A stretch of 11,411 bases of DNA from an archaeon (GCA_043819075.1 JBDRFE010000027.1:1-11411); one strand, 5' to 3'; positions 413 to 11,166 are shown, counted from the first letter of the stretch. Numbers and translations are program-made. The notes: generated by a model from the sequence alone, not told the origin.

Positions 413-468
413 GCTTTATCGAGCTGAAAGCGAAGATAATGCTTCGTGACAGCCGAGCGAAATCGGCT
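413..468 (+). repeat. Structured intergenic element copy 1 (two hairpins; lacks the terminal GGGCTGAAGCC)
   Basis: gctttatc-GAGCTGAAAGCGAA-gataatgc (413-442), then TTCG (443-446) and agccga-GCGAAA-tcggct (451-468). Same layout as 5868-5945 and 6971-7009. Confidence 0.75.
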
Positions 469-778
469 AATTAAATCCATATTGGCGGGCAAATAACAGC
501 ACTTCAATTGCAGTTATAATAAAGAAAAAGCCTGCAACATAAGAAATCCATGCGCTGATAACAACAACTGGAAGGGCAGAAAAATCAAATAAGAATGAAA
601 TAAAACTGAATAAATGCAGGGTAAAAAACATTAAAGAAGTGAGAAAAATCCATCGGGTAATAGCCTTTAACTCAGTTGAATTAAATTTCAGTGAACTCAA
701 AAAAGATACAACTACTGCAACCAGAATTAAGATTAAACTGGTTACATTCAGCAATGAAGTGAAATTCAGTTCAATCAT
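467..778 (-). CDS. Small integral membrane protein (~3 TM), paralog of 775..1101
   Basis: Three hydrophobic segments, AGGTG SD, ATGA overlap with the upstream gene's stop at 775-778. Confidence 0.85.
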   Translation of the reverse strand: MIELNFTSLLNVTSLILILVAVVVSFLSSLKFNSTELKAITRWIFLTSLMFFTLHLFSFISFLFDFSALPVVVISAWISYVAGFFFIITAIEVLLFARQYGFN

Positions 779-1101
779 TCCAGCACCTTCTTGTTTTTCA
801 TTCCGAATTTCTCTGAAAACCTTAAAGCCTCAAAAGACGTTAAAATTAATCCAATGCTTGTGGCAATCACAAAAAAAGCCCTTACAGCATAAATTAAGTA
901 AATAGGGTAATCAGTGTAAACCATTACTAAAATAAAAAACTGGCCTGAAACAAAAATCAGCAGAGAATAAAAAAAATGAATTAAAATATCTCTTAACTTT
1001 CCTTCATTAAACCTGTATAATGCGCCAAAAAAAAGCATTACAGTAAGTAATGCAATGACAAAACTGATTAAACTTGAAGTAAAATCAAAGCCTAAAGTCA
1101 T
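775..1101 (-). CDS. Small integral membrane protein (~3 TM)
   Basis: Three hydrophobic segments and a basic C-tail, GAGGTAGG SD, ATGA overlap at 1098-1101. Confidence 0.85.
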   Translation of the reverse strand: MTLGFDFTSSLISFVIALLTVMLFFGALYRFNEGKLRDILIHFFYSLLIFVSGQFFILVMVYTDYPIYLIYAVRAFFVIATSIGLILTSFEALRFSEKFGMKNKKVLE

Positions 1102-1655
1102 TTTCCTACCTCAATGATTCTGTCACAGAACTGGCTTACCTGTGCAATCAGCCTTTCATCAACATTTTTCTGCAAAGAAATTAATACCCCTTTAATTTTC
1201 CATTCCCTCATTCTTCCCGTAAGAAAATGCGCAAATTTTGTCACACTCTGCGACTGGTTGTAAATCAGTAAAGTGCTCAAAGAATCAAGGAAAATAAACC
1301 TGTCAGTTGTTTCTTTCATTGCCTTAAATGCTTCTCCTAAAGCAATGCCTAACTCTGTTAAGCTGTTAGGGGAATTAATAAACAAACAGTTTGGAACTTC
1401 TTTTGCTTCACCTACAACTGTCATGGTTATTGCATCAATGAAAAAAATGTTTTTGGTTTTAATCTTGTTTGATTCAAGCAATTCAATCAAGCTGTTAAAA
1501 GGCCTGTTGATTGTAACATAAATTCCTTTTTCGTTTAACTTGTTTGTTAAAATGTTAAGGATTTTAAGGTTTGTTTCAAGATACTTTTTTTCATCAGACA
1601 AAATCAATACAATCTCTTTTTTCTTTACTTTAGACAACTCTTTAATCAAATCCAT
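1098..1655 (-). CDS. Inactivated KaiC/RecA-fold ATPase-like protein (DUF835/DUF7504-like)
   Basis: GIYVTINRP, FFIDAIT and Walker-B-like IFLDSLSTLLIYN motifs; terminal CDRIIEV strand; no GxxxxGK[T/S] Walker A; GGGTG SD. Confidence 0.8.
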   Translation of the reverse strand: MDLIKELSKVKKKEIVLILSDEKKYLETNLKILNILTNKLNEKGIYVTINRPFNSLIELLESNKIKTKNIFFIDAITMTVVGEAKEVPNCLFINSPNSLTELGIALGEAFKAMKETTDRFIFLDSLSTLLIYNQSQSVTKFAHFLTGRMREWKIKGVLISLQKNVDERLIAQVSQFCDRIIEVGK

Positions 1656-1794
1656 TTTCTAGCACCCGTAAAACTTCAATTAAATTCCTTAAATAAAAAC
1701 ACTTTAAAGGTTAATAAGTCTTACTGTAAAAACACAATTAAAATAAAAGGAAAAGCTTAAATTAATCCAAAAACCAATCATATAAGTGATAAAA

Positions 1795-2166
1795 ATGCAA
1801 AAAAATCTTAGGCAAAGGCGCATAACAGGCGGAACACTGTTTGGCAGCTTTAACTTAGGCGCAGGTCATGAAATAAAGGCAAAGCCATTGTACAAACCAG
1901 AAGCCCCTGCAGGAAAAATTAATTTAAATGAAATAGCTGTTTCAAAAAGAAGAACAGACAGAACAGCTTTCAATAAGTTTCTCAGAAAATTTAGTGCAAG
2001 AGTTAACGAAAAAGGAACTCTAGTTAACTCGGATGGAAGTGTTATTCAGGGCGGAGGAACACATGAAAACATTGAAAGAGTAAGAAAAATACTTAAAGCA
2101 ATTCACAGCTGGCAGCCAGAATACAAGCCAACAGACTTGCAGAAAAAGAAAACTAAGAAAAAATAA
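1795..2166 (+). CDS. Hypothetical Lys/Arg-rich protein
   Basis: ORF fills the gap between divergent and convergent neighbours. ATG 1795 follows an AGTGAT SD-like motif (the track's GTG at 1786 lies inside that motif). No recognisable domain. Confidence 0.7.
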   Translation: MQKNLRQRRITGGTLFGSFNLGAGHEIKAKPLYKPEAPAGKINLNEIAVSKRRTDRTAFNKFLRKFSARVNEKGTLVNSDGSVIQGGGTHENIERVRKILKAIHSWQPEYKPTDLQKKKTKKK

Positions 2167-2167
2167 T

Positions 2168-2839
2168 TCACACTATTTTTAAAAGCTCGTTAATGTCTTT
2201 TATTTCAAAATCAGCTTTAATCTTTTTTGAAAAAAACTTTTGCCCATACAATGCAAGACAGGTCTTCATTCCAGCCTGTTTTGCGCCAACAATATCTCTT
2301 TCAGGGTTATCGCCGACAAACAATATTTCTTTTGGCTTTAACTTTAATTCCTTTAAAGCTTTTTCAAAAGGAATTCTGTTTGGCTTTAACAAGCCAGTGT
2401 CATCTAAAGTGACAACAACATCAAAATAATGGGTTAAATTCATTTCAGCTAACCTCAGCCAGGCACGCATTCTTGGAGCATCAGAGACAATGCCTAAAAC
2501 AATATTTTTTTCCTTTAATTTGACTAAAGTGCTTCTCACATGAGGATAAGGAAACAAAAAACCTGACTGCACTCTTCTGTAGGCTGCAATGCCATTGCTT
2601 AAAATCCTGTAATCAATTTTTTTAATAGTTTTTTCAAGAAATTTCTGGAAAATGGTTTGGTCTTCAATGCCATGCTCTCTGAACAACTCAGACAAAATCT
2701 TTCTTGCCTTGTCTTCTTTAATATCTAAGCCTGCGTCAATCATTGCAAGAATTGCGGCATTAGATGATTCAGTTTTCATTCTCATGAAATCAATTAAAGT
2801 ATTATCCAAGTCAAACAAAACAGCTTTTATCTTTCCCAT
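2168..2839 (-). CDS. HAD-superfamily hydrolase, subfamily IA (YjjG/CTE7-like)
   Basis: Motif I FDLDNT, motif II IVSD, motif III KP, motif IV GDNPERD; GAGTGATG SD. Confidence 0.93.
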   Translation of the reverse strand: MGKIKAVLFDLDNTLIDFMRMKTESSNAAILAMIDAGLDIKEDKARKILSELFREHGIEDQTIFQKFLEKTIKKIDYRILSNGIAAYRRVQSGFLFPYPHVRSTLVKLKEKNIVLGIVSDAPRMRAWLRLAEMNLTHYFDVVVTLDDTGLLKPNRIPFEKALKELKLKPKEILFVGDNPERDIVGAKQAGMKTCLALYGQKFFSKKIKADFEIKDINELLKIV

Positions 2840-2845
2840 AACACA

Positions 2846-2941
2846 TCACTCTTCCAAAAAAACATTTATTTTATCCATAAAACCTCACACTTCCCAAAAA
2901 AAACCAGCTTTTTTTCATTAAATCACACTTCCAATAAAAAC
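2846..2941. repeat. Three imperfect ~18-20 bp direct repeats with 38-39 bp period
   Basis: tcactcttccaaaaaaac (2846), tcacacttcccaaaaaaaac (2885), tcacacttccaataaaaac (2923). Confidence 0.5.
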
Positions 2942-3342
2942 AATTCAGTTTTACTGTCTTTTTTTCTTTCAATTTTTTCAGGAAAAACCTGCAAAAAAAC
3001 CTCTAAAGTTGCACCAACTGTCCCAGAAACAAAATGGCCTCCGATTACACTGAAATCTTTTTTTCCTAAAACAATATGCGAGTGAACAAAAGGCTTTCCC
3101 TGCTTTAAAGAAATGTTTCCGGAAAAGCTTAATACTTCAAGGTCTTCTTCAAAAGTTTTGCTTAAATACTTTTTTTCTTCCAGAGAAAAATGCGCTAACT
3201 CGGCTTTATTTAACGCCCCGATTCCATAAAAAAAGCCTGAAAAAACTTTTTTTTCTTCAAGGAATGCAATGAATTCTTCTAAAACACTTTCCCCTGAAAA
3301 AAACCTTAAAACAAACCCAGAAGAAGTTTTTTTGTGTCTCAT
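2923..3342 (-). CDS. PPC-domain / DUF296 protein
   Basis: GIGAL, LEVLSFSGNI, HSHIVLG and GGHF motifs (HxH...H metal site) typical of DUF296. Confidence 0.92.
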   Translation of the reverse strand: MRHKKTSSGFVLRFFSGESVLEEFIAFLEEKKVFSGFFYGIGALNKAELAHFSLEEKKYLSKTFEEDLEVLSFSGNISLKQGKPFVHSHIVLGKKDFSVIGGHFVSGTVGATLEVFLQVFPEKIERKKDSKTELFLLEV

Positions 3343-3404
3343 TTTATCCCTTCAATTTTATTTATTCTGTCCCTTCTTATAAAAAAATAATTTTTTTTAC
3401 TGCA

Positions 3405-3482
3405 TTAACTAACTCCATTCCATTGCTTTCTTTCATACAGTTCAGGCTTTCCCCCTTCAATTGCAGGTTTTAATCCAGGCAT
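3405..3482 (-). pseudogene. 25-codon ORF, possible 5' remnant of a DegT/DnrJ-type aminotransferase
   Basis: MPGLKPAIEGGKPELYERKQWNGVS*. KPAIEGGKP resembles the KLAIxGGxP N-terminus of that family. TTTAAA box about 25 bp upstream on the minus strand. Confidence 0.3.
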
Positions 3483-3546
3483 AATAATAGAGTCTGATAA
3501 AAGCTTTAAAACACTTTTTAACATAGTTTTTTCTGGCTGAAAACAG

Positions 3547-4932
3547 ATGAACATTATTTTGGTTACCGCAGACACTTTAAAGGCAAAAACCCTTGAAATA
3601 GAAAAAAATAATATTCCAAACATTGAATTCCTGAGAAAAAACGGCTTTGAGTTCAGGAACCATTTTGTTTCAAGCCCTTGGACTGGCGCAAGCTTTGCCT
3701 CTTTTTTTACCGGAGCCTATCCAAAACAACATGGGTTCATCCTCAATTGCCCTGAAATAAAAAACTTTTCCGAGCCCCCTCACGAAGAAGAACCTGACGG
3801 GGTTTCATTCAAGTCATTCAACCCAGACAAAGAAAACCATTTCACTAAAACCCTGAAAAAAACCCATTATTGCATTGGAATCCAGGGAAACAGTGTGTGC
3901 CATGAAGAGCGTTTTGGAAGGCACTTTCATGAATACAAAGAAGATTTCAACAGCAGGCTCATGGAAAAGATTTTCAGGTTTTCAAGAAAAATACGTCTTT
4001 TCCCTTTGCTGATGAAAATAAAAAGAATCAAAGACAATGCAAAAGCCAAGTTATTCAAAAACAAATACCAAGAAACCGCAAAATTATTCAATAAAAGAAA
4101 AGCTAATATTCCGGTTTACAAGACCGCAGAAACATTAACTGACAGAACAATAAAAAAAATCAAGGCAAACAAAAACAAAGACTTTTTTTTATGGATTAAT
4201 TTTGTTGACATGCACGCCCCATACACTGACTTATACAATTTAAGCAGCAAGCCGGAATACAAAAAAATTAACTGCAACAAAACAGAATTGTTTGACCTGA
4301 TTTACAACCTGAAAAACAAGTTAACTGAAACAGAAAAAAAATTTGTTGAAGAAAAATATCACGCAAAAATCAGGCTGATTGACAGCCAAATCGGAAGAAT
4401 AATTGAATGCTTAAAAGAAAACAGCCTGTTTGAAAAAACCTCAATAATTTTTTCAAGCGACCACGGAGAAGAATTCTGGGAGCACGGAACAAAAAGAGAC
4501 GACAAATTTTTTTACACCAGAGGCGTATCACACGGCCACACACTATACAACGAGTTAATTAAAGTGCCTTTATTCATTTACAGCTCATCAATTAGCCCAA
4601 AAAAAATAAACAAGTTAACCAGCTGCGTCAACATTTATAACACAGTGCTTGAAATAGCCGGAGCAGAAAAAAACCCTGAGCTTCCTCCTTCTCTTATTGA
4701 CATTGCATTAAACAAAAAAGAAATGGATTATGTGATAGCTGAAAGCATTTTATTCGGAAAAGAAAGAAAAACAGTCATAGACAAAAACAATTTCAAGCTC
4801 ATAAAAGGAACAGAAGACAATAAAACAGAATTATTTGACTTAAACAATGATCCAAAAGAAAAAAACGATATTGCAGAACAAAACCCAAAAAAAACCAAAG
4901 AAATGCTTGACAGGCTTTTCTTTTACATATAA
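3547..4932 (+). CDS. Sulfatase-like hydrolase/transferase (alkaline phosphatase superfamily)
   Basis: NIILVTADTL, SPWTGASFASFFTG, DMHAPY, SSDHGE, HGHTLYNELIKVPL and ELFDLNNDPKEKNDIA motifs. Confidence 0.92.
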   Translation: MNIILVTADTLKAKTLEIEKNNIPNIEFLRKNGFEFRNHFVSSPWTGASFASFFTGAYPKQHGFILNCPEIKNFSEPPHEEEPDGVSFKSFNPDKENHFTKTLKKTHYCIGIQGNSVCHEERFGRHFHEYKEDFNSRLMEKIFRFSRKIRLFPLLMKIKRIKDNAKAKLFKNKYQETAKLFNKRKANIPVYKTAETLTDRTIKKIKANKNKDFFLWINFVDMHAPYTDLYNLSSKPEYKKINCNKTELFDLIYNLKNKLTETEKKFVEEKYHAKIRLIDSQIGRIIECLKENSLFEKTSIIFSSDHGEEFWEHGTKRDDKFFYTRGVSHGHTLYNELIKVPLFIYSSSISPKKINKLTSCVNIYNTVLEIAGAEKNPELPPSLIDIALNKKEMDYVIAESILFGKERKTVIDKNNFKLIKGTEDNKTELFDLNNDPKEKNDIAEQNPKKTKEMLDRLFFYI

Positions 4933-5732
4933 CCCATTGAACGCAGTTTCTGCATCATAAACTGTTTTTCTTTGTCTTGTGCTCTTCCGCTTCTTTCAGC
5001 AATTTTTGTCTTTGATAGTTCGACAACAATTTTTTCAAGTGAATCAGCATTGCTTTCAACCGGAGCACAACAGCACTCGCATCCAATGCTCCTATACCTT
5101 TTTCCTTTTTCCCTGTAACCGGAAAAATATAAGTTCACCATTGGAATGCTTTCTCTTTTAACGTAAGCCCAGACATCTTGTTCAGTCCAGTTAAGCAATG
5201 GATGAATTCTCATGTGCTCGCCTTTTCCTGTCTCGCTTTTATATAAATTCCATACTTCTGCGTCCTGGTCAGAGTAATTCCATTTAAAGTCTTTGCCTCT
5301 CAAAGAAAAAATCCTTTCCTTGCCTCGAATTCCATGCTCGTCTCTTCTTATTCCTAATAAAACTGCCTCTAACTTGTGTTTTTGAATTACTTCCTTGAAT
5401 GCCTCTGTTTTCAGCTGAGAACAGCATTCAAATCTTCCTTTTTCCGGATTCATTCCGGCTTTCAATGCTTTAGAATTTTTTCCAATAATGAGGTTTAAAT
5501 TCCATTCTTTTGAGTACTTGTCTCTGAAATCATAGATTTCTTTGAATTTAAATGAAGTGTCAATGTGAATTACTGGAAAAGGAATTTCTCCAAAAAAAGC
5601 TTTTTTGCATAACCATAATAAAGTTGTTGAATCTTTTCCCATGCTCCAAAGCATTCCGGTTTTCTTGAATTTATTGAAAACTTCTCTTATAATGTAAATG
5701 CTCTGGCTTTCAAGTTCATCCAAGTGATTCAT
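4923..5732 (-). CDS. cysD: Sulfate adenylyltransferase subunit 2
   Basis: N-terminal HLDELESQSIYIIRE, PP-loop SMGKDS, HIDT, LKTEA, HMRIHPLLNWTE, YRSIGC, ERSGRAQDKE and terminal GYM match CysD. Confidence 0.93.
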   Translation of the reverse strand: MNHLDELESQSIYIIREVFNKFKKTGMLWSMGKDSTTLLWLCKKAFFGEIPFPVIHIDTSFKFKEIYDFRDKYSKEWNLNLIIGKNSKALKAGMNPEKGRFECCSQLKTEAFKEVIQKHKLEAVLLGIRRDEHGIRGKERIFSLRGKDFKWNYSDQDAEVWNLYKSETGKGEHMRIHPLLNWTEQDVWAYVKRESIPMVNLYFSGYREKGKRYRSIGCECCCAPVESNADSLEKIVVELSKTKIAERSGRAQDKEKQFMMQKLRSMGYM

Positions 5733-5835
5733 TACCTGAATTTAACTGCAAAACATTTTTTAATCATTTAACTACAAAATTTTTCTGGCTGATGATGATT
5801 TGACGATGACTCCGAGCGCAAGCAATGAAGAAAGA

Positions 5836-5895
5836 TGGGCGGACTGAAGCCAAAATTAGTTTTGCATATTATCGAGGAATTGAATGCAATGAAAT
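5836..5895 (+). repeat. 60-bp direct repeat, left copy
   Basis: tgggcggactgaagccaaaattagttttgcatattatcgaggaattgaatgcaatgaaat; 57/60 identical to 8795-8854. Confidence 0.95.
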
Positions 5896-5906
5896 TCCTC
5901 ACATAT

Positions 5907-5945
5907 TTCGTTGCTCGCGAGCGAAATCGCGAAAGGGCTGAAGCC
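5907..5945 (+). repeat. Structured intergenic element copy 2
   Basis: TTCG (5907-5910), tcgcga-GCGAAA-tcgcga (5915-5932), GGGCTGAAGCC (5935-5945). Preceded by hairpin gaggaatt-GAATGCAATGA-aattcctc (5874-5900). Confidence 0.85.
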
Positions 5946-5950
5946 GCAAT

Positions 5951-5998
5951 ATTTAAATTATGTTCCATATAGTGAACATATGTTCAGTTTAATGAACA
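5951..5998 (+). promoter_or_regulatory. TATA box followed by two tandem palindromic operators TGTTC-N8-GAACA
   Basis: TTTAAAT at 5952-5958; tgttc-catatagt-gaaca (5961-5978) and tgttc-agtttaat-gaaca (5981-5998), period 20 bp, directly before a wHTH gene. Confidence 0.75.
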
Positions 5999-6006
5999 GT
6001 GGTTTT

Positions 6007-6621
6007 ATGAGCTTAATGCAGCAATCAATAAATTCCAAATCAAAAATTTTATTGCTTGAAAAATTGCTGGATAAATCAGGTTCTTTTTCTGTTTCAGAAT
6101 TAGGGCGTTTATCCGGCATCCCAAAAGCAACTGTTTCAGGCATTGTAAATGACTGGGAAAAAGCAGGTTTGGTGCTGGTGGAATACCAAGGCAGAAACAA
6201 ATTAGCCAAAATTAACCAGAAGTTTTATTTACTGCCTGAACTAAAAAAAATCTTCAGGAAAACAAGCGATTTCCAGCAGCCATTGCTTAGCATGCTTGAA
6301 TCCTCTAAACTTCTGAAAAACCCAAAAATAAAAGCAGTGATTGTTTTCGGGTCACGCATCAGGAAAGATTTTTCGCACCACTCTGATTTGGATGTTTTAA
6401 TTGGATTAGAACAAAAGAACAGTGAACTGGAAGAAAAAATCGTGGAAAAATTTGTTAGTGCAACAGCCAGCACAGGCATCAGGTTTTCGCCGGCAATACT
6501 TGATAAAAAAGAAATTAAATCCCGTCTGAAAGAAAAAGACTTGTTTTTTCAAAACATTTTATCAGAAGGAAAAATACTGAAAGGAAGGACTTGGATTGAA
6601 CACCTACAAACAGCACTTTGA
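6007..6621 (+). CDS. wHTH-fused minimal nucleotidyltransferase (MNT antitoxin-like)
   Basis: N-terminal wHTH (FSVSELGRLSGIPKATVSGIVNDWEKAGLV); FGSRIRKDFSHHSDLDV fits GSx10DxD; C-terminal ILSEGKIL. Start moved from 5911 to ATG 6007 because the extension runs through the repeat and promoter. Confidence 0.9.
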   Translation: MSLMQQSINSKSKILLLEKLLDKSGSFSVSELGRLSGIPKATVSGIVNDWEKAGLVLVEYQGRNKLAKINQKFYLLPELKKIFRKTSDFQQPLLSMLESSKLLKNPKIKAVIVFGSRIRKDFSHHSDLDVLIGLEQKNSELEEKIVEKFVSATASTGIRFSPAILDKKEIKSRLKEKDLFFQNILSEGKILKGRTWIEHLQTAL

Positions 6622-6967
6622 TTTGGCTAACGAAAGGTTTCAGGCAGCAGAAGACTTGCTTAAAAAAGAAAAATATCATACAGCAGCACACTTATTTATT
6701 AACGCAGCCATAAACTACCATAATGCGTTATGCCAAAAGTTTTTGAATAAAATACCTTCACACAAACCTCACTCTGACATCAGCAGTTATTTCAACGAAC
6801 TATCACGCTTTTTAGGAGAAGACTCCAAAAAATACCGTGATGCCTATGAATTCCTGATAGCCAACAAAAGCCAGGCAGATTACGGCGTTTACTTTTCTGT
6901 TTCAATGGCCAAACAAATTGAACGCAAAGCAAACAAAATCAAGGAAATAGCAGAAATGCACTTGTAA
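6596..6967 (+). CDS. HEPN-domain protein (partner of the MNT)
   Basis: TTG start overlapping the MNT 3' end by 26 bp; helical pattern ANERFQAAEDLLKKEKYHTAA; conserved His (KPHSD); KSQADY in place of RxxADY. Confidence 0.85.
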   Translation: MNTYKQHFDLANERFQAAEDLLKKEKYHTAAHLFINAAINYHNALCQKFLNKIPSHKPHSDISSYFNELSRFLGEDSKKYRDAYEFLIANKSQADYGVYFSVSMAKQIERKANKIKEIAEMHL

Positions 6968-6970
6968 CAT

Positions 6971-7009
6971 TTCGCTACTGCCGGGCGAAACCGGCAGCGG
7001 GCTGAAGCC
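6971..7009 (+). repeat. Structured intergenic element copy 3
   Basis: TTCG (6971-6974), ctgccgg-GCGAAA-ccggcag (6978-6997), GGGCTGAAGCC (6999-7009). Begins 3 nt after the HEPN stop. Confidence 0.85.
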
Positions 7010-7071: not shown

Positions 7072-7104
7072 AACCTTTTTATGGTTTTTGGCTTATATTT
7101 CATT

Positions 7105-8328
7105 ATGATTTCAAAGTATGATTTGCTTTATTCTGTTTTTCTTAATGAAGGATTAACCGCTGCACAATTAGTCAGGAAATTAGGCAAAAGCCAATATGAA
7201 TATAATAAATTCTATAAACATCTGAAGCAATTAGAAGAAGATGGATTAATTGAAACTAAACAAAACAAATACTTTCTTAAAAAAATTGAAAAAACAAAAG
7301 AATTCATCAAAGTAATTGACTTTTCTGTTAAAAACAATATTGATTACCATGAATTGTTTTTGGAAAAAACAATTGAATTCATTGAATTAGGATTAAAGAA
7401 AAATATTTTATTTGATTTGCCTTTTGATAACAAAACTGTTTCAAAAATCTCAACTTTTTTAGCAAAGCATGGCTTTCTCTTAATTGAGTCAAGAAAACCT
7501 TTTACTGCAAGAATTGTTTATTCTGATTTTTTAGAGAAAGTTGTGAAATTATTTAAAGGAAAAACTAAAATAAAGTGCAAAAAGATTTTTGAAGATGTTA
7601 ATGAAAAAAAACTGAATTCCCAGATTGAAAAGGAATTTTCTGCTTACAAAAAATCATCTAAAAAAATACTTATTGATGATGAAGTCAGATTTATTCACAG
7701 AAGTCTTTCTCTTGAAGGAAACACTTTAACTTTGTCTGAAACAGAAAAACTGATTAAAGAAAACATTCCGCCTAAAACAAGAACTTTTAAGGAAATGCAG
7801 GAAACAATGGATTACAAGAAAGCATTAGACAGGTTTATTCAAGATAAAAGTGAATTAGAGTTGCAGAAAGTTTTGGAATTCCATGAAACTGCAATGAATT
7901 CTCTTGAAGCAGGAAAAGGAAAAATAAGAAAACAAAACGTTAAAATCAAAGGAAATCCAGATTTTAAGACAGCTGACTGGAAAGAAATTCCGGGAAAACT
8001 AAATGAGTTGTTTGCTTTTTATAAACAAAATGTTTACAAAAAATTAAAAGCATTTGAGGTAGTTGAACTTGCTTCTTATTTTCATAATGAATTCCAGAGA
8101 ATTCATCCGTTCATTGACGGCAATTCAAGAACAGCAAGAGCATTATTTGCCCACGTTTTAATTCTGAAAGGTTTTCCTTTGATTGCCTTTCCTTCGGGAT
8201 TTGTAGAACAATACTTGGCCTTAACTAAATTATCAAAAGAAAGAGAAGACAAGCATTTTGAATTGTTCATGAAACAATTGGTTTTGCATTCATTAAAGCA
8301 GACAAACCAGAAACTGAAATACAGTTAA
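7105..8328 (+). CDS. Fic-family protein with N-terminal winged HTH region
   Basis: Fic motif HPFIDGNSRTAR (8104-8139); inhibitory motif SLSLEGN (7702-7722); N-terminal wHTH-like LTAAQLVRKLG...HLKQLEEDGLIE. Start is ATG 7105 or 7081. Confidence 0.92.
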   Translation: MISKYDLLYSVFLNEGLTAAQLVRKLGKSQYEYNKFYKHLKQLEEDGLIETKQNKYFLKKIEKTKEFIKVIDFSVKNNIDYHELFLEKTIEFIELGLKKNILFDLPFDNKTVSKISTFLAKHGFLLIESRKPFTARIVYSDFLEKVVKLFKGKTKIKCKKIFEDVNEKKLNSQIEKEFSAYKKSSKKILIDDEVRFIHRSLSLEGNTLTLSETEKLIKENIPPKTRTFKEMQETMDYKKALDRFIQDKSELELQKVLEFHETAMNSLEAGKGKIRKQNVKIKGNPDFKTADWKEIPGKLNELFAFYKQNVYKKLKAFEVVELASYFHNEFQRIHPFIDGNSRTARALFAHVLILKGFPLIAFPSGFVEQYLALTKLSKEREDKHFELFMKQLVLHSLKQTNQKLKYS

Positions 8329-8376: not shown

Positions 8377-8703
8377 ATGAAGAAATTGTTTTTGATCACA
8401 ATAATTGGATTAGTTATATTGTTTAGCGGTTGCACTCAAACTAATCCAAATCAGGAACAAAAAGAAAGCGTAAAAGAAATATTAATTAGTAATGTGTGCA
8501 AAGAAACTCTGTGCGCTCCAACCTATCTGTTTGAATGCGAGAATGGTTTTGCATCTAGTGATAGTTGCAAGGATAGTTTTAGTTTTGGATATGACACACA
8601 AGGAAACATAATAAGTCAATGTGGTGGATATATTGGCGGTTGTCAAATTAAAACAGATTATGATATAGGAAATTGTAATACAAAAAAGAATCTTTGTGAT
8701 TAA
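8377..8703 (+). CDS. Small Cys-rich predicted lipoprotein
   Basis: Signal peptide with lipobox MKKLFLITIIGLVILFSGC; eight further cysteines; TTTAAA box about 25 bp upstream (leaderless). Confidence 0.85.
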   Translation: MKKLFLITIIGLVILFSGCTQTNPNQEQKESVKEILISNVCKETLCAPTYLFECENGFASSDSCKDSFSFGYDTQGNIISQCGGYIGGCQIKTDYDIGNCNTKKNLCD

Positions 8704-8794
8704 GTCATTAACTCATCTGTTAGCACTAAATTTTGCCGTAAAATTTTAGAATAACTTTTAATTATGTAATTATTGTTTCATCTTTCGGTCAAGT

Positions 8795-8854
8795 TGGGCA
8801 GGCTGAAGCCAAAATTAGTTTTGCATATTATCTAGGAATTGAATGCAATGAAAT
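8795..8854 (+). repeat. 60-bp direct repeat, right copy
   Basis: tgggcaggctgaagccaaaattagttttgcatattatctaggaattgaatgcaatgaaat; 57/60 identical to 5836-5895; contains GGCTGAAGCC. Confidence 0.95.
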
Positions 8855-10554: not shown

Positions 10555-11166
10555 ATGGAATTTGAATTCAGCGGAAACAAAATTGAATTTGAAAGAGAAC
10601 TTTCAAACCTAGACAAACTCGTAATAAAATTCACTAAAATTCTTTACAGGCTGAAAATAGATTATGTTATTATTTCAGGTTACATTGCTATTTTGTTTGG
10701 CAGAAGCAGGAACACCGAAGATGTTGACTTGTTCATTGAAGAAATGCCTTTAAAAAAATTTTTACGGTTCTGGAATGAACTTAGTATTGAAGGATTTGAA
10801 TGTCTTAATACATCAAATCCAAAAGAAGCATATTCTGATTATTTGAAAGAAAAGCTTGCAGTAAGGTTTGCAGTTAAAGGAACTTTTATCCCAAACTTTG
10901 AATTAAAGTTTCCGAAAACAAAATACAATATTTATTCTCTGAATAACAAAATTGAAGTAACTCTGAATAAAGAAAAACTAATGACTTCAGAAATTGAACT
11001 TCAAATAGCGTTTAAATTAAGCTTGGGAAGCGAAAAAGATTTTGAAGATGCAAGGCATTTATATAAAGTTTTTAAAGAACATTTGGATATAAATTTATTG
11101 AAAAGGCAGATTAATGAATTAAAAGTTGAAAAGCAAGCGGAGAAAATATTATGGAAAAAGGATTAA
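10555..11166 (+). CDS. Pol-beta-superfamily nucleotidyltransferase (AbiEii/DUF6036-like)
   Basis: YVIISGYIAILFGRSRNTEDVDLFI (G..A.....R.T.DxD) and C-terminal K....SEKDFEDA; TTAAATTA box about 25 bp upstream. Confidence 0.8.
   Translation: MEFEFSGNKIEFERELSNLDKLVIKFTKILYRLKIDYVIISGYIAILFGRSRNTEDVDLFIEEMPLKKFLRFWNELSIEGFECLNTSNPKEAYSDYLKEKLAVRFAVKGTFIPNFELKFPKTKYNIYSLNNKIEVTLNKEKLMTSEIELQIAFKLSLGSEKDFEDARHLYKVFKEHLDINLLKRQINELKVEKQAEKILWKKD

Follow-up and report, generated by a model that had tools for sequence, protein, structure and literature searches.

A dispersed, covarying hairpin-knot element in a DPANN archaeon and its association with stable-RNA gene ends and accessory genes

REP-type repeats accompanied by an enzyme of their own have been described from bacteria, and reduced genomes are thought to lose repeats. 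In both REP sequences and IS200 ends, a hairpin is preceded on its 5' side by a short guide (PMC6006769, PMC8266576), and in the part of the source available, only the IS200-type subclass 1.1 is seen in archaea (PMC6006769). The archaeal PATEs lack target duplications and keep IS termini, according to the excerpted description (PMC3119063), and whole-gene duplications and MITE-like copies have been described for archaeal box C/D sRNAs (PMC6009581, in part).

Here, we describe a small structured element identified in a stretch of 11,411 nucleotides of an archaeal genome (GCA_043819075.1 JBDRFE010000027.1:1-11411; hereafter, the window) and compared across six genomes of the genus (G000-G005; completeness 81-96%). 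We interpret it as a small, non-coding insertion element belonging to a single DPANN order, akin to REP sequences and PATEs, a reading to which, with mobility and array formation included, we assign a probability of roughly 55%. The literature search found no published description of the element, and an initial sequence-only reading, which recognized no named family, is borne out by the lack of any Rfam match at gathering score in the window and 20 other element loci.

The window contains three copies of the element, all on the plus strand and GC-rich (0.58-0.69 compared with 0.33 for the window), as originally reported (Table 1). The pattern TTCG-N10-GCGAAA, noticed at 443, 5907 and 6971, matches the window four times, the fourth match being copy 3 read in reverse, against 0.01 expected, and none of 200 shuffles reached four; the stems pair over 6, 6 and 7 bp, also as claimed. 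The element is larger than first claimed, with an additional 5' hairpin, denoted X, in copies 1 (413-442) and 2 (5864-5906). The 3' end of copy 1 contributes part of the stop codon of a minus-strand gene (467-778), and copy 3 begins 1 nt after the stop of the HEPN gene. Energy folding of single copies, in a model that leaves knots out, was not significant alone (z from +1.9 to -2.2).

Table 1. Coordinates of the element copies, sRNA gene, sRNA-end duplicates and cargo genes in the window
Feature	Position	Strand	Details
Element copy 1	413..468	+	hairpin X 413-442; lead TCG 444-446; stem 451-456/463-468; loop 457-462
Box C/D guide sRNA gene (predicted)	5787..5851	+	box C 5792-5798; D' guide 5799-5811; box D' 5812-5815
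Box C/D guide sRNA gene, 3' part	5787..5851	+	box C' 5825-5831; D guide 5832-5843; box D 5844-5847
Box C/D guide sRNA terminal stem	5787-5790/5848-5851	+	
Element copy 2	5864..5932	+	hairpin X 5864-5906; lead 5908-5910; stem 5915-5920/5927-5932; loop 5921-5926
Cargo 1: HTH-nucleotidyltransferase (MNT) and HEPN genes	5911..6967	+	MNT ORF 5911-6621; HEPN 6596-6967; Pfam
Duplicated, worn sRNA 3' end (box D + terminal stem)	5935..5945	+	the mini-hairpin of the sequence-only reading
Element copy 3	6969..6996	+	knot module alone, X lost; lead 6972-6974; stem 6979-6984/6991-6996
Second duplicate of sRNA 3' end	6997..7009	+	14-nt match, one mismatch
Cargo 2: HTH-Fic gene	7081..8328	+	Pfam Fic
Cargo 3: small lipoprotein-like ORF	8377..8703	+	no Pfam family
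Probable collapsed element	8778-8790	+	
Third sRNA-end copy	8791-8810	+	
Spacer copy and truncated hairpin X	8811-8854	+	

The core of the element is a knot, formed by base pairing between the 5' lead (TCG) and the loop (CGA); in copy 1, the loop CGA at 458-460 is complementary to the lead at 444-446. Lead-loop complementarity is present in 89 of 105 modules, compared with 24 when shuffled, and covaries through at least nine base combinations, the leads including TCG, CCG, CGC, CTG and CAG, among others. This pairing explains the fixed 10-nt spacing. Each 25-nt module combines the 3-bp lead-loop helix with a 6-bp stem, has near-invariant positions (C7, C11-G22, A18 and A19), and forms the knot specifically on one strand (49/54 vs 6/54). 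As had been proposed, structure is kept while sequence varies: among 330 stem pairs in 55 copies, 321 are Watson-Crick and 2 are G-T, and the X stems include 3 G-T pairs in 189. With G-T pairs so scarce and one hairpin class resembling IS200/IS605 ends, the action at the DNA level that was first put forward as probable is, in our assessment, plausible. A one-strand-only knot with an AA loop is equally typical of RNA and DNA; copies in kin are not independent, and palindrome-correcting mutation is able to perfect stems without selection.

The search for further copies revealed a family dispersed across the genome, comprising about 80 modules. A tRNA gene lies near 33 of 57 modules (4.0 expected), and 17 of the 57 are flush, within 5 nt, with a tRNA end or an antisense stop (vs 1.7%), the spacer between element and tRNA end consisting of 0-4 nt, mostly A. 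Other modules are located in introns, at the 3' end of the 23S rRNA gene, in the RNase P RNA (in sense) and in a pilin leader. As among REP sequences, there are many extragenic palindromic copies as well as doublets and mosaics. Orientation is independent of transcription, as the sequence-only reading maintained (antisense to the operon for copy 1, sense for copies 2 and 3), and tRNA-associated copies are antisense at the 3' side and sense at the 5' side. The proposed rule of a single strand did not hold up genome-wide, with 31 modules on the plus and 26 on the minus strand, and both strands used within single contigs (4/7 in C2, 4/4 in C60), so that three of three on the plus strand is unremarkable. 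Duplications accompany the element at other loci as well, with lengths of about 27 bp (C2:97.8k), about 38 bp (C45:5.5k) and 15 bp (C9); tRNA-flush copies have no duplicate within 3.5 kb. Viral contigs scanned with two element patterns yielded no match. A 19-nt X pattern matched 99 stretches of genome contigs, mainly unrelated bacterial palindromes or coding sequence, and 8 of the 99 loci were element-like, those with titles being labelled Micrarchaeota, Iainarchaeum or archaeon.

Upstream of copy 2, the segment 5787-5851 is predicted to be a box C/D sRNA, given that boxes C, D', C' and D and the guide spacing all fit; the Rfam C/D matches are weak and below gathering. Among the sequencing runs listed as containing the sequence, none was an RNA run. 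Both this sRNA and the lead-loop knot had been overlooked in the first reading. In a comparison for which most of the 23S rRNA of this genome is unassembled, the D' guide forms 12 pairs with the 16S rRNA of the same genome at 1011 (equalled by 3 of 500 shuffled guides), and the D guide forms 9 Watson-Crick pairs at 1355 (equalled by 38 of 500), which is weak alone; the D guide is invariant across genomes. Alignment of 5 genomes shows the boxes and guides to be conserved, as they also are in 2 genomes from a different family (G091 and G123), in which no duplicate tail or element occurs within about 1.5 kb of the sRNA. The sequence GGGCTGAAGCC, regarded at first as a DNA mini-hairpin of the element, does begin 8 nt past the loop in copies 2 and 3 but is no component of the element. 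It consists of box D and the sRNA terminal stem, which rules out the mini-hairpin, and accompanies 2 of 19 genome-wide pattern matches, both in this window. Because it is the sRNA 3' end, the occurrence at 5841-5851 is the original and those at 5935, 6999 and 8800 are copies; what had been listed as variants at 5841-5851 and 8800-8810 are present, as the sRNA end and its copy rather than forms of the element. A 64-nt repeat, 94% identical with 5832-5895, underlies the reading of 8778..8854, where likeness to the element lead region suggests that 8778-8790 is probably a collapsed element.

Accessory-gene boundaries are marked by element copies in this window, as suspected, units of element plus sRNA tail delimiting the MNT-HEPN, Fic and lipoprotein cargo; there is no repeat between the Fic gene and the lipoprotein gene. 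The MNT and HEPN genes (Pfam Polbeta/NTP_transf_2/MarR and HEPN; PADLOC PDC-M05A) would constitute a toxin-antitoxin-like pair, and the true MNT start is probably an ATG at 5980 or later. Element and sRNA tail were absent from 9 of 9 other Fic loci.

The cargo behind the sRNA differs between relatives and between sequenced populations. MNT/HEPN is absent from this position in G001, G002, G003 and G005; an 84% Fic orthologue lies directly behind the sRNA in G003, the sRNA array of G004 includes a 47% homologue, and Fic was not found in G002 or G005. In run X5, 5855 is joined to 8337 on one contig, which places the lipoprotein-like ORF directly behind the sRNA. In run X3, the second sRNA-end duplicate (6997..7009) is followed by one more element unit; the X3 back-joint includes 36 other letters. 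Since arrays with no cassette, with one and with several are all represented in public data, read analysis can test the order of events. The element itself also varies in occurrence: the site of copy 1 is empty in 4/4 relatives (G001, G002, G003 and G005), and a contig of run X1 skips 358-489, the copy 1 region. An element is present behind the sRNA at the position matching copy 2 in G002, G004 and G005, the TGCCGG stem type of copy 3 is found behind the sRNA in G004 and G005, and the sRNA retained in G001 and G003 is followed by no element. An sRNA tail follows an element in 4 of the 6 genus genomes and matches the host's own sRNA end in G000, G002 and G005; one G004 cassette has a foreign-looking tail. 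The boundary type of 8778..8854 recurs in G004, and in G000, G002 and G004 the join point is the same, immediately 5' of the D guide. The arrays in the spacers behind ftsZ and the C20 gene are missing in relatives.

Contrary to the anticipated pairing with a specific nuclease or recombinase gene, no mobiliser co-occurs consistently with the element. Across the six genus genomes, RAYT (NF047646) exceeded the cut-off in none and GIY-YIG was found in none, and HUH or GIY motif scans of 1296 ORFs of this genome detected none. The sole tyrosine recombinase of the genome passes the XerA cut-off and not the integron integrase cut-off. IS200-type TnpA was identified in G004 and G008, along with 16 residues in G000, and was not found in G001, G002, G003 and G005; at one contig edge in this genome, an IS200-type element is represented by its right end and the C-terminus. 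The local IS200-type ends show no lead-loop pairing and no match to the element, and no constant 3' tetranucleotide or motif, as at IS200/IS605 right ends, was detected in 57 modules. The commonest X class is one loop base longer than the IS200/IS605 end palindrome common to 76 of 80 viral loci, a comparison in which the palindrome pattern was built from the element and the copies in the window have either a different X type or no X at all; two viral loci with an IS605-type palindrome were confirmed as TnpA+TnpB. In other families, the X hairpins show no relationship to IS605 ends, so the likeness may concern one subfamily. A metagenome search with DPANN TnpA recovered 3 loci, with the element at none, and the IS200-type transposase is a weak mobiliser candidate.

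What is observed is the covarying structure, the dispersal, the presence or absence between relatives, the preference for stable-RNA gene ends and, in this window, the sRNA-end duplicates that come after the element and delimit variable cargo. The element would be a replaceable hairpin X stacked on the compact knot. It would be non-autonomous, and an enzyme acting in trans would move it in the form of folded single-stranded DNA; for this enzyme, an HUH/IS200-type nuclease is the single likeliest candidate, at somewhat less than even odds. Its 3' end would be the reactive end, joined to a nearby site: joining to a site behind would yield a 10-40-bp duplication, for example, of the sRNA tail, and joining to a site ahead would delete the spacer up to a tRNA end or stop codon. 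Copies would survive only where RNA processing or gene ends render them harmless, and the direct repeats of element plus sRNA tail would serve as homology joints, by which toxin-antitoxin-like cargo located behind the sRNA could be acquired, accumulated and lost. For DNA-level movement, we counted the many copies antisense to their transcript; against the reading as a whole, we counted the lack of an enzyme that tracks the element, of a constant terminal tetranucleotide and of duplicates near the tRNA-flush copies. The wider proposition of a new class of minimal mobile element, with a self-paired guide-loop knot, an unrecognised enzyme, integrase-free cassette arrays of defence and toxin-antitoxin genes at stable-RNA gene ends, that of a box C/D guide RNA included, and tRNA introns lengthened in DPANN archaea, appears rather doubtful.

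Variable duplications of 10-40 bp, short, mostly A spacers ahead of tRNA ends, strand specificity of the knot, and residence in transcribed, discarded RNA are also expected of a SINE-like retroposed RNA, in which the knot would be the 3'-terminal structure for a reverse transcriptase in trans, target priming would leave long duplications of variable length and short spacers rich in A, and the 3' ends of RNAs would prime or flank the element; a MITE-like sRNA family of Pyrobaculum has been compared to retroposition (PMC6009581, in part). This origin is nonetheless unlikely because no reverse transcriptase was detected in this genome, one of five relatives has two, located on 2-kb contigs and resembling those of group II introns, and G-U pairs are almost absent. 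Less probable still is a host-functional RNA module, a hairpin-knot that steers processing, stability or termination at tRNA, rRNA and sRNA ends and is spread by ordinary recombination. The tRNA association, strong in four genomes of other genera and families as well, the strict structure, and the sense insertion in RNase P RNA fit such a role, but 10 of 13 tRNA-flush copies are antisense, such that the knot cannot form in the transcript, most tRNA ends lack the element, orthologous sites are empty in relatives, and the sRNA of G001 and G003 does without it.

The array could alternatively be built by host XerA at an attC- or IMEX-like site composed of element and sRNA tail, with cassettes entering singly. 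Its cassette-like layout, the direct repeats, the common join point, the foreign-looking tail in G004, and the weak binding of XerA to unrelated stem-loop att sites (PMC8371274, in part) are compatible with site-specific recombination; we consider it very unlikely, however, as most of the ~80 modules bound no cargo, there is neither an integron integrase nor a second tyrosine recombinase, the repeat is missing between the Fic and lipoprotein genes, and the X3 back-joint has other letters with no circle shown. An enzyme-free genomic scar, arising when replication arrest at hairpins or their cleavage by repair nucleases is followed by slippage that duplicates them and makes the stems perfect, would account for the absence of a mobiliser, perfect stems on both strands, and irregular sizes of duplications and deletions. 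It is highly improbable, given that palindrome correction makes neither the fixed-register, multiply covarying lead-loop pairing nor the near-invariant knot positions.

The insertion-element reading gains context from known systems, compared here as far as the available parts of the sources describe them. The element resembles REP/BIME/REPIN-RAYT sequences (PMC6006769, PMC8266576, PMC3733652) as short extragenic palindromes with many copies, mosaics and inverted doublets, in the short conserved motif 5' of the hairpin foot, the perfect short stems as in group 3, the ends that supply stop codons, and the in-frame insertion into genes. It differs in that there is no GTAG/CGTC tag, with neither GTAG/GGAG nor CGTC at the hairpin foot, and the 5' motif varies and pairs with its own loop; furthermore, RAYT is missing at the cut-off applied, targeting of tRNA and sRNA ends is strong, duplications are long, and the family is archaeal. 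Like PATEs (PMC3119063), it is transposase-free, palindrome-bearing, archaeal and devoid of terminal inverted repeats; unlike them, it has duplications, no constant terminal tetranucleotide and no match to local IS200 ends. One X class is almost identical to the IS200/IS605 palindromes. In contrast to MITEs, there are single arms without terminal inverted repeats, and duplication length is variable or nil; integron attC sites are set apart by the lack of an integron integrase in the genome.

The boxes, 12-13-nt rRNA guides, terminal stem and conserved guides of 5787-5851 are those of archaeal box C/D sRNAs (PMC6009581), but here, the 3' end has been duplicated more than once and stands at the head of a cargo array. 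As in tRNA-anchored islands and integron cassette arrays (PMC8371274), the host RNA gene is restored at one side, its 3' end is repeated at cargo boundaries, and the cargo is defence- or toxin-antitoxin-like; unlike in those systems as described, the anchor is a methylation guide RNA, the repeats, of 11-20 nt, are coupled to a dispersed knot element, and the array is without an integrase gene. The locus offers a methylation guide RNA seen as an island anchor, a concrete route for the growth of tRNA introns and leaders and for stacking accessory genes without an integrase, and, in the knot, a defined 25-nt bait for seeking the protein. In light of the REP comparison, these reduced archaeal genomes contain a family of REP-like behaviour whose signal, a covarying knot, differs from that of REP and for which no mobiliser is known.

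The dispersed hairpin element proposed from three copies in the window is real. The window is one entire contig (11,411 bp) of a 1.24-Mb genome (34.6% GC, 75 contigs, 90.6% complete), and the pattern TTCG-N10-GCGAAA is present in it at the three starts noticed in the sequence-only reading and in a reverse reading of copy 3 (expected number in the window, 0.01), with the stems and spacings of the three copies agreeing on re-check. Further copies exist genome-wide, where the pattern matches 19 sites and its reversed control 2; five or all six stem pairs form at 16 of the 19. A perfect 6-bp stem was found at 48 of 76 genome sites chosen by sequence anchors only, and the 55 sites with at least four pairs include 321 Watson-Crick, 2 G-T and 5 A-C pairs among 330. 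The proposed stem covariation likewise holds, as 171 of 180 pairs are retained in 30 distinct stems versus 80.7 +/- 7.3 with the arms shuffled.

The conserved structure extends beyond the stem. The first three bases of the 5' lead read as the reverse complement of the second to fourth loop positions in 65 of 76 distinct modules of this genome, with lead and loop letters unconstrained, and in 89 of 105 modules once relatives are added (shuffled mean 23.8, maximum 38). The lead/loop combinations include TCG/CGA (41), CCG/CGG (19), CGC/GCG (9), CTG/CAG (5), CAG/CTG (4), and CGT/ACG, CAA/TTG and CAC/GTG (3 each), with TAG/CTA also present. On 56 rows (53 of 66 plus the three window copies, the 6-bp stems being perfect by selection), the lead-loop helix has 97% paired cells, with both sides changing at all three pairs; none of 500 shuffles was as high, and slid partners were 10-36% paired. 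Rows were dropped as duplicates of window copies (3), as reverse-strand readings (7) or for lacking element context (3); none of the 10 non-duplicates has the pairing, which puts the unfiltered count at 51 of 66. The pairing keeps to one side (49 of 54 for the 5' lead versus 6 of 54 for the mirrored 3' positions), and 94 genome hairpins show it versus 7-12 for each shifted register and loop size, implying about 75-80 modules. This knot explains the fixed spacing first noticed; with a layout of 3 bp, 4 nt, 6 bp, 1 nt and 2-3 nt, it would correspond to a compact H-type pseudoknot. The module is mostly preceded by a second hairpin, X, of several interchangeable types, which copy 3 has lost, and across the genome arms combine into head-to-head doublets and chains.

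Features of the window and their coordinates
Feature	Position	Strand	Remark
Gene at contig start	16-288	-	Conserved behind KaiC-like/small membrane protein cluster (relatives' loci L116-L119); product presumably resembles a histone-fold protein with acidic N-terminal tail
Short inverted repeat	384-395, 504-515		Encloses copy 1
Hairpin X, copy 1	413-442
Copy 1	443 (start)
Gene sharing its stop codon with copy 1	467-778
KaiC-like protein (DUF7504/ATPase), two small membrane proteins	467-1655		Syntenic in four relatives
Sulfatase and PAPS-reductase-like genes	3547-5732		Between PCC gene and sRNA
Box C/D sRNA	5787-5851	+
Hairpin X, copy 2	5864-5906
Copy 2	5907 (start)
Copy 3	6971 (start)
Fic gene	7081-8328
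Lipoprotein-like ORF	8377-8703
Segment inside DUF2204 nucleotidyltransferase gene	10671-11124		452 bases skipped by contigs of runs X1 and X3

In the five genus relatives (G001-G005) the simple pattern has 6-19 matches each versus 0-5 for the control, and the X-plus-lead pattern occurs in all six genus genomes and in 1 of 190 other genomes of the order. The core module ranges beyond the genus: among 20 loci hand-picked from the matches to these two patterns, 13 form 5-6 stem pairs, in four genomes that belong to other genera or families. Named records with the element are titled Iainarchaeum, Micrarchaeota or archaeon. We regard the family as a dispersed insertion element, with a probability of about 0.9.

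The copies show a target preference: 33 of 57 modules lie inside or within 150 nt of tRNA genes (4.0 expected), and ARAGORN finds tRNA genes at 10 of the 20 hand-picked element loci. Of the 57, ten finish no more than 5 nt away from the 3' end of a tRNA and are antisense to it, three do so at a tRNA 5' end in sense, and four at an antisense stop codon, so that 17 are flush with such features (null 1.7%); another 30 are more than 5 nt from any called feature, for several because another module type is next in line. The uniform plus-strand orientation of the window copies does not extend to the genome, where 31 modules are on the plus and 26 on the minus strand. Further sites are tRNA introns, the 23S 3' end, a pilin-like leader (in frame) and the RNase P RNA of a relative. 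A role as a host RNA module is argued against by the antisense copies and by sites that are empty in relatives. Insertion is polymorphic: the site of copy 1, which shares sequence with a stop codon, is a plain 9-11-nt spacer in the relatives compared (G001, G002, G003, G005), and the element arrays 3' of ftsZ and of a gene on contig C20 are missing or different in relatives, their original spacers having been lost from this genome. Duplications of about 27, 38 and 15 bp lie beside some arrays, and none was found within 3.5 kb of tRNA-flush copies. The left part of the inverted repeat around copy 1 may be a relic of a second, opposite arm. Elsewhere (G000:C9:2000-5160), two elements, each followed by the identical 15 bases of a tRNA-Glu 3' end, bound a four-gene, 3-kb island, a tRNA counterpart of the sRNA array.

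The mini-hairpin that the sequence-only reading attached to the element is not part of it: GGCTGAAGCC matches the genome at 10 places and comes after an element only here. It is very probably the duplicated 3' end of the box C/D sRNA. That gene has boxes C, D', C' and D, guides of 13 and 12 nt and a 4-bp terminal stem, and Rfam gives sub-threshold C/D matches only. On the 16S rRNA of this genome, its D' guide forms 12 pairs at position 1011 (equalled by 3 of 500 shuffled guides) and its D guide 9 pairs at 1355 (38 of 500), the latter pointing at C1402 of the decoding site in E. coli numbering. The gene is present in all five relatives, and both guides are nearly invariant. A search of 151 genomes by a strict pattern recovers it in 2 that belong to another family. 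In this genome, G002, G004 and G005 an element has a copy of the sRNA end behind it, and in G001 and G003 none does; the last bases of the tail track the host's own sRNA end in this genome, G002 and G005, and one G004 copy ends like the G001/G002 sRNA. A second box C/D-like sequence, sharing the D'/C' loop motif of the window sRNA, lies on the opposite strand 3' of the stop of the C20-gene orthologue in G001 (contig C35) and G002 (contig C5); it is absent from our genome, both elsewhere and at the orthologous site, where an element doublet occupies the gap.

Behind the sRNA, the cargo turns over. Here the order is element, tail, MNT-HEPN pair, element, tail, Fic, lipoprotein-like gene and, at the end, what is probably a collapsed element, followed by a tail and a 64-nt repeat. 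In G003 a Fic orthologue (84%) adjoins the sRNA directly, G004 carries an array of its own in which elements and tails separate HTH-nucleotidyltransferase pairs and Fic, and G001, G002 and G005 are cargo-free. The 5' side is variable too, the sRNA of relatives adjoining the PCC gene or other inserts. Logan contigs of four sequencing runs (X1, X3, X4 and X5) were compared with the window (likeness 88). One X3 contig, with long pieces about 99% like the window, leaves it at 7009 and, after 36 other letters, enters a copy-2-like element, adding one unit; one X5 contig joins 5855 to 8337, omitting MNT-HEPN and Fic; and one X1 contig skips 358-489, each joint being a single contig with 31-42 letters on its short side. 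An X4 contig spanning 5634-6191 is window-like. The X5 and X1 joint contigs may come from related organisms, and X1 may be the source sample. Separately, X4 and X5 contigs lie within the DUF2204 segment skipped in X1 and X3, a deletion allele in the population.

The data show how the element is built, that it is dispersed and polymorphic, which targets it prefers, and that the sRNA tail is duplicated and the cargo turns over. These observations would fit an intermediate that is single-stranded and folded and is joined by its 3' end to sites behind or ahead, with copies surviving at tolerated places only and the resulting repeats serving as joints; for the whole account of element and array, we consider the odds slightly better than even. 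No mobiliser was found; an HUH-type enzyme is a tentative candidate, somewhat short of an even chance. Of the partners suggested beforehand, GIY-YIG is absent from all six genus genomes, no RAYT exceeded the cut-off, and the one tyrosine recombinase of this genome scores as XerA. A reverse transcriptase was not found in this genome; one of five relatives has two on 2-kb contigs (G002:C30 and C28), both group II intron-like and possibly foreign to that bin. No element was found on viral contigs. G004 and a further genome, G008, encode an IS200-type TnpA; of its 100 homologues, some carry the label Micrarchaeota or Diapherotrites. A search of four other genus genomes did not find this enzyme, and its element's own ends differ from the repeat described here. 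G004, G008 and two metagenome loci have those ends in conserved form, and the edge of contig C7 in this genome (about 1930-2073) holds the last 16 TnpA residues and a two-hairpin right end, cut by the contig end. One study reports IS200/IS605 elements from more than 65% of the genomes of Micrarchaeota (PMC13343696).

The literature searched, with few subscription papers covered, describes neither the element nor an island anchored by a C/D sRNA. It includes work on REP elements (PMC3733652, PMC6006769, PMC8266576), PATEs (PMC3119063), archaeal C/D sRNAs (PMC6009581) and tRNA-anchored islands and cassette arrays (PMC8371274), as well as PMC3184786. A phage attachment site reportedly lies in an SRP RNA gene (PMC12540744). 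The 19-nt palindrome of the commonest X hairpin occurs in bacterial REP-like repeats (Fervidibacter and Vicinamibacterales records; L005, L026, L037, L048, L053, L063, L076), in some 3' of a GTAG tag. Compared with IS200/IS605, the commonest X class of the genus is one loop base longer than a palindrome common to 76 of 80 viral loci; a TnpB-like motif lies near 23 of these, and TnpA plus TnpB were confirmed at two. Since the viral-locus pattern derives from the element itself, the match speaks of likeness rather than descent. In its behaviour the element is REP/PATE-like, yet it is a member of neither group.
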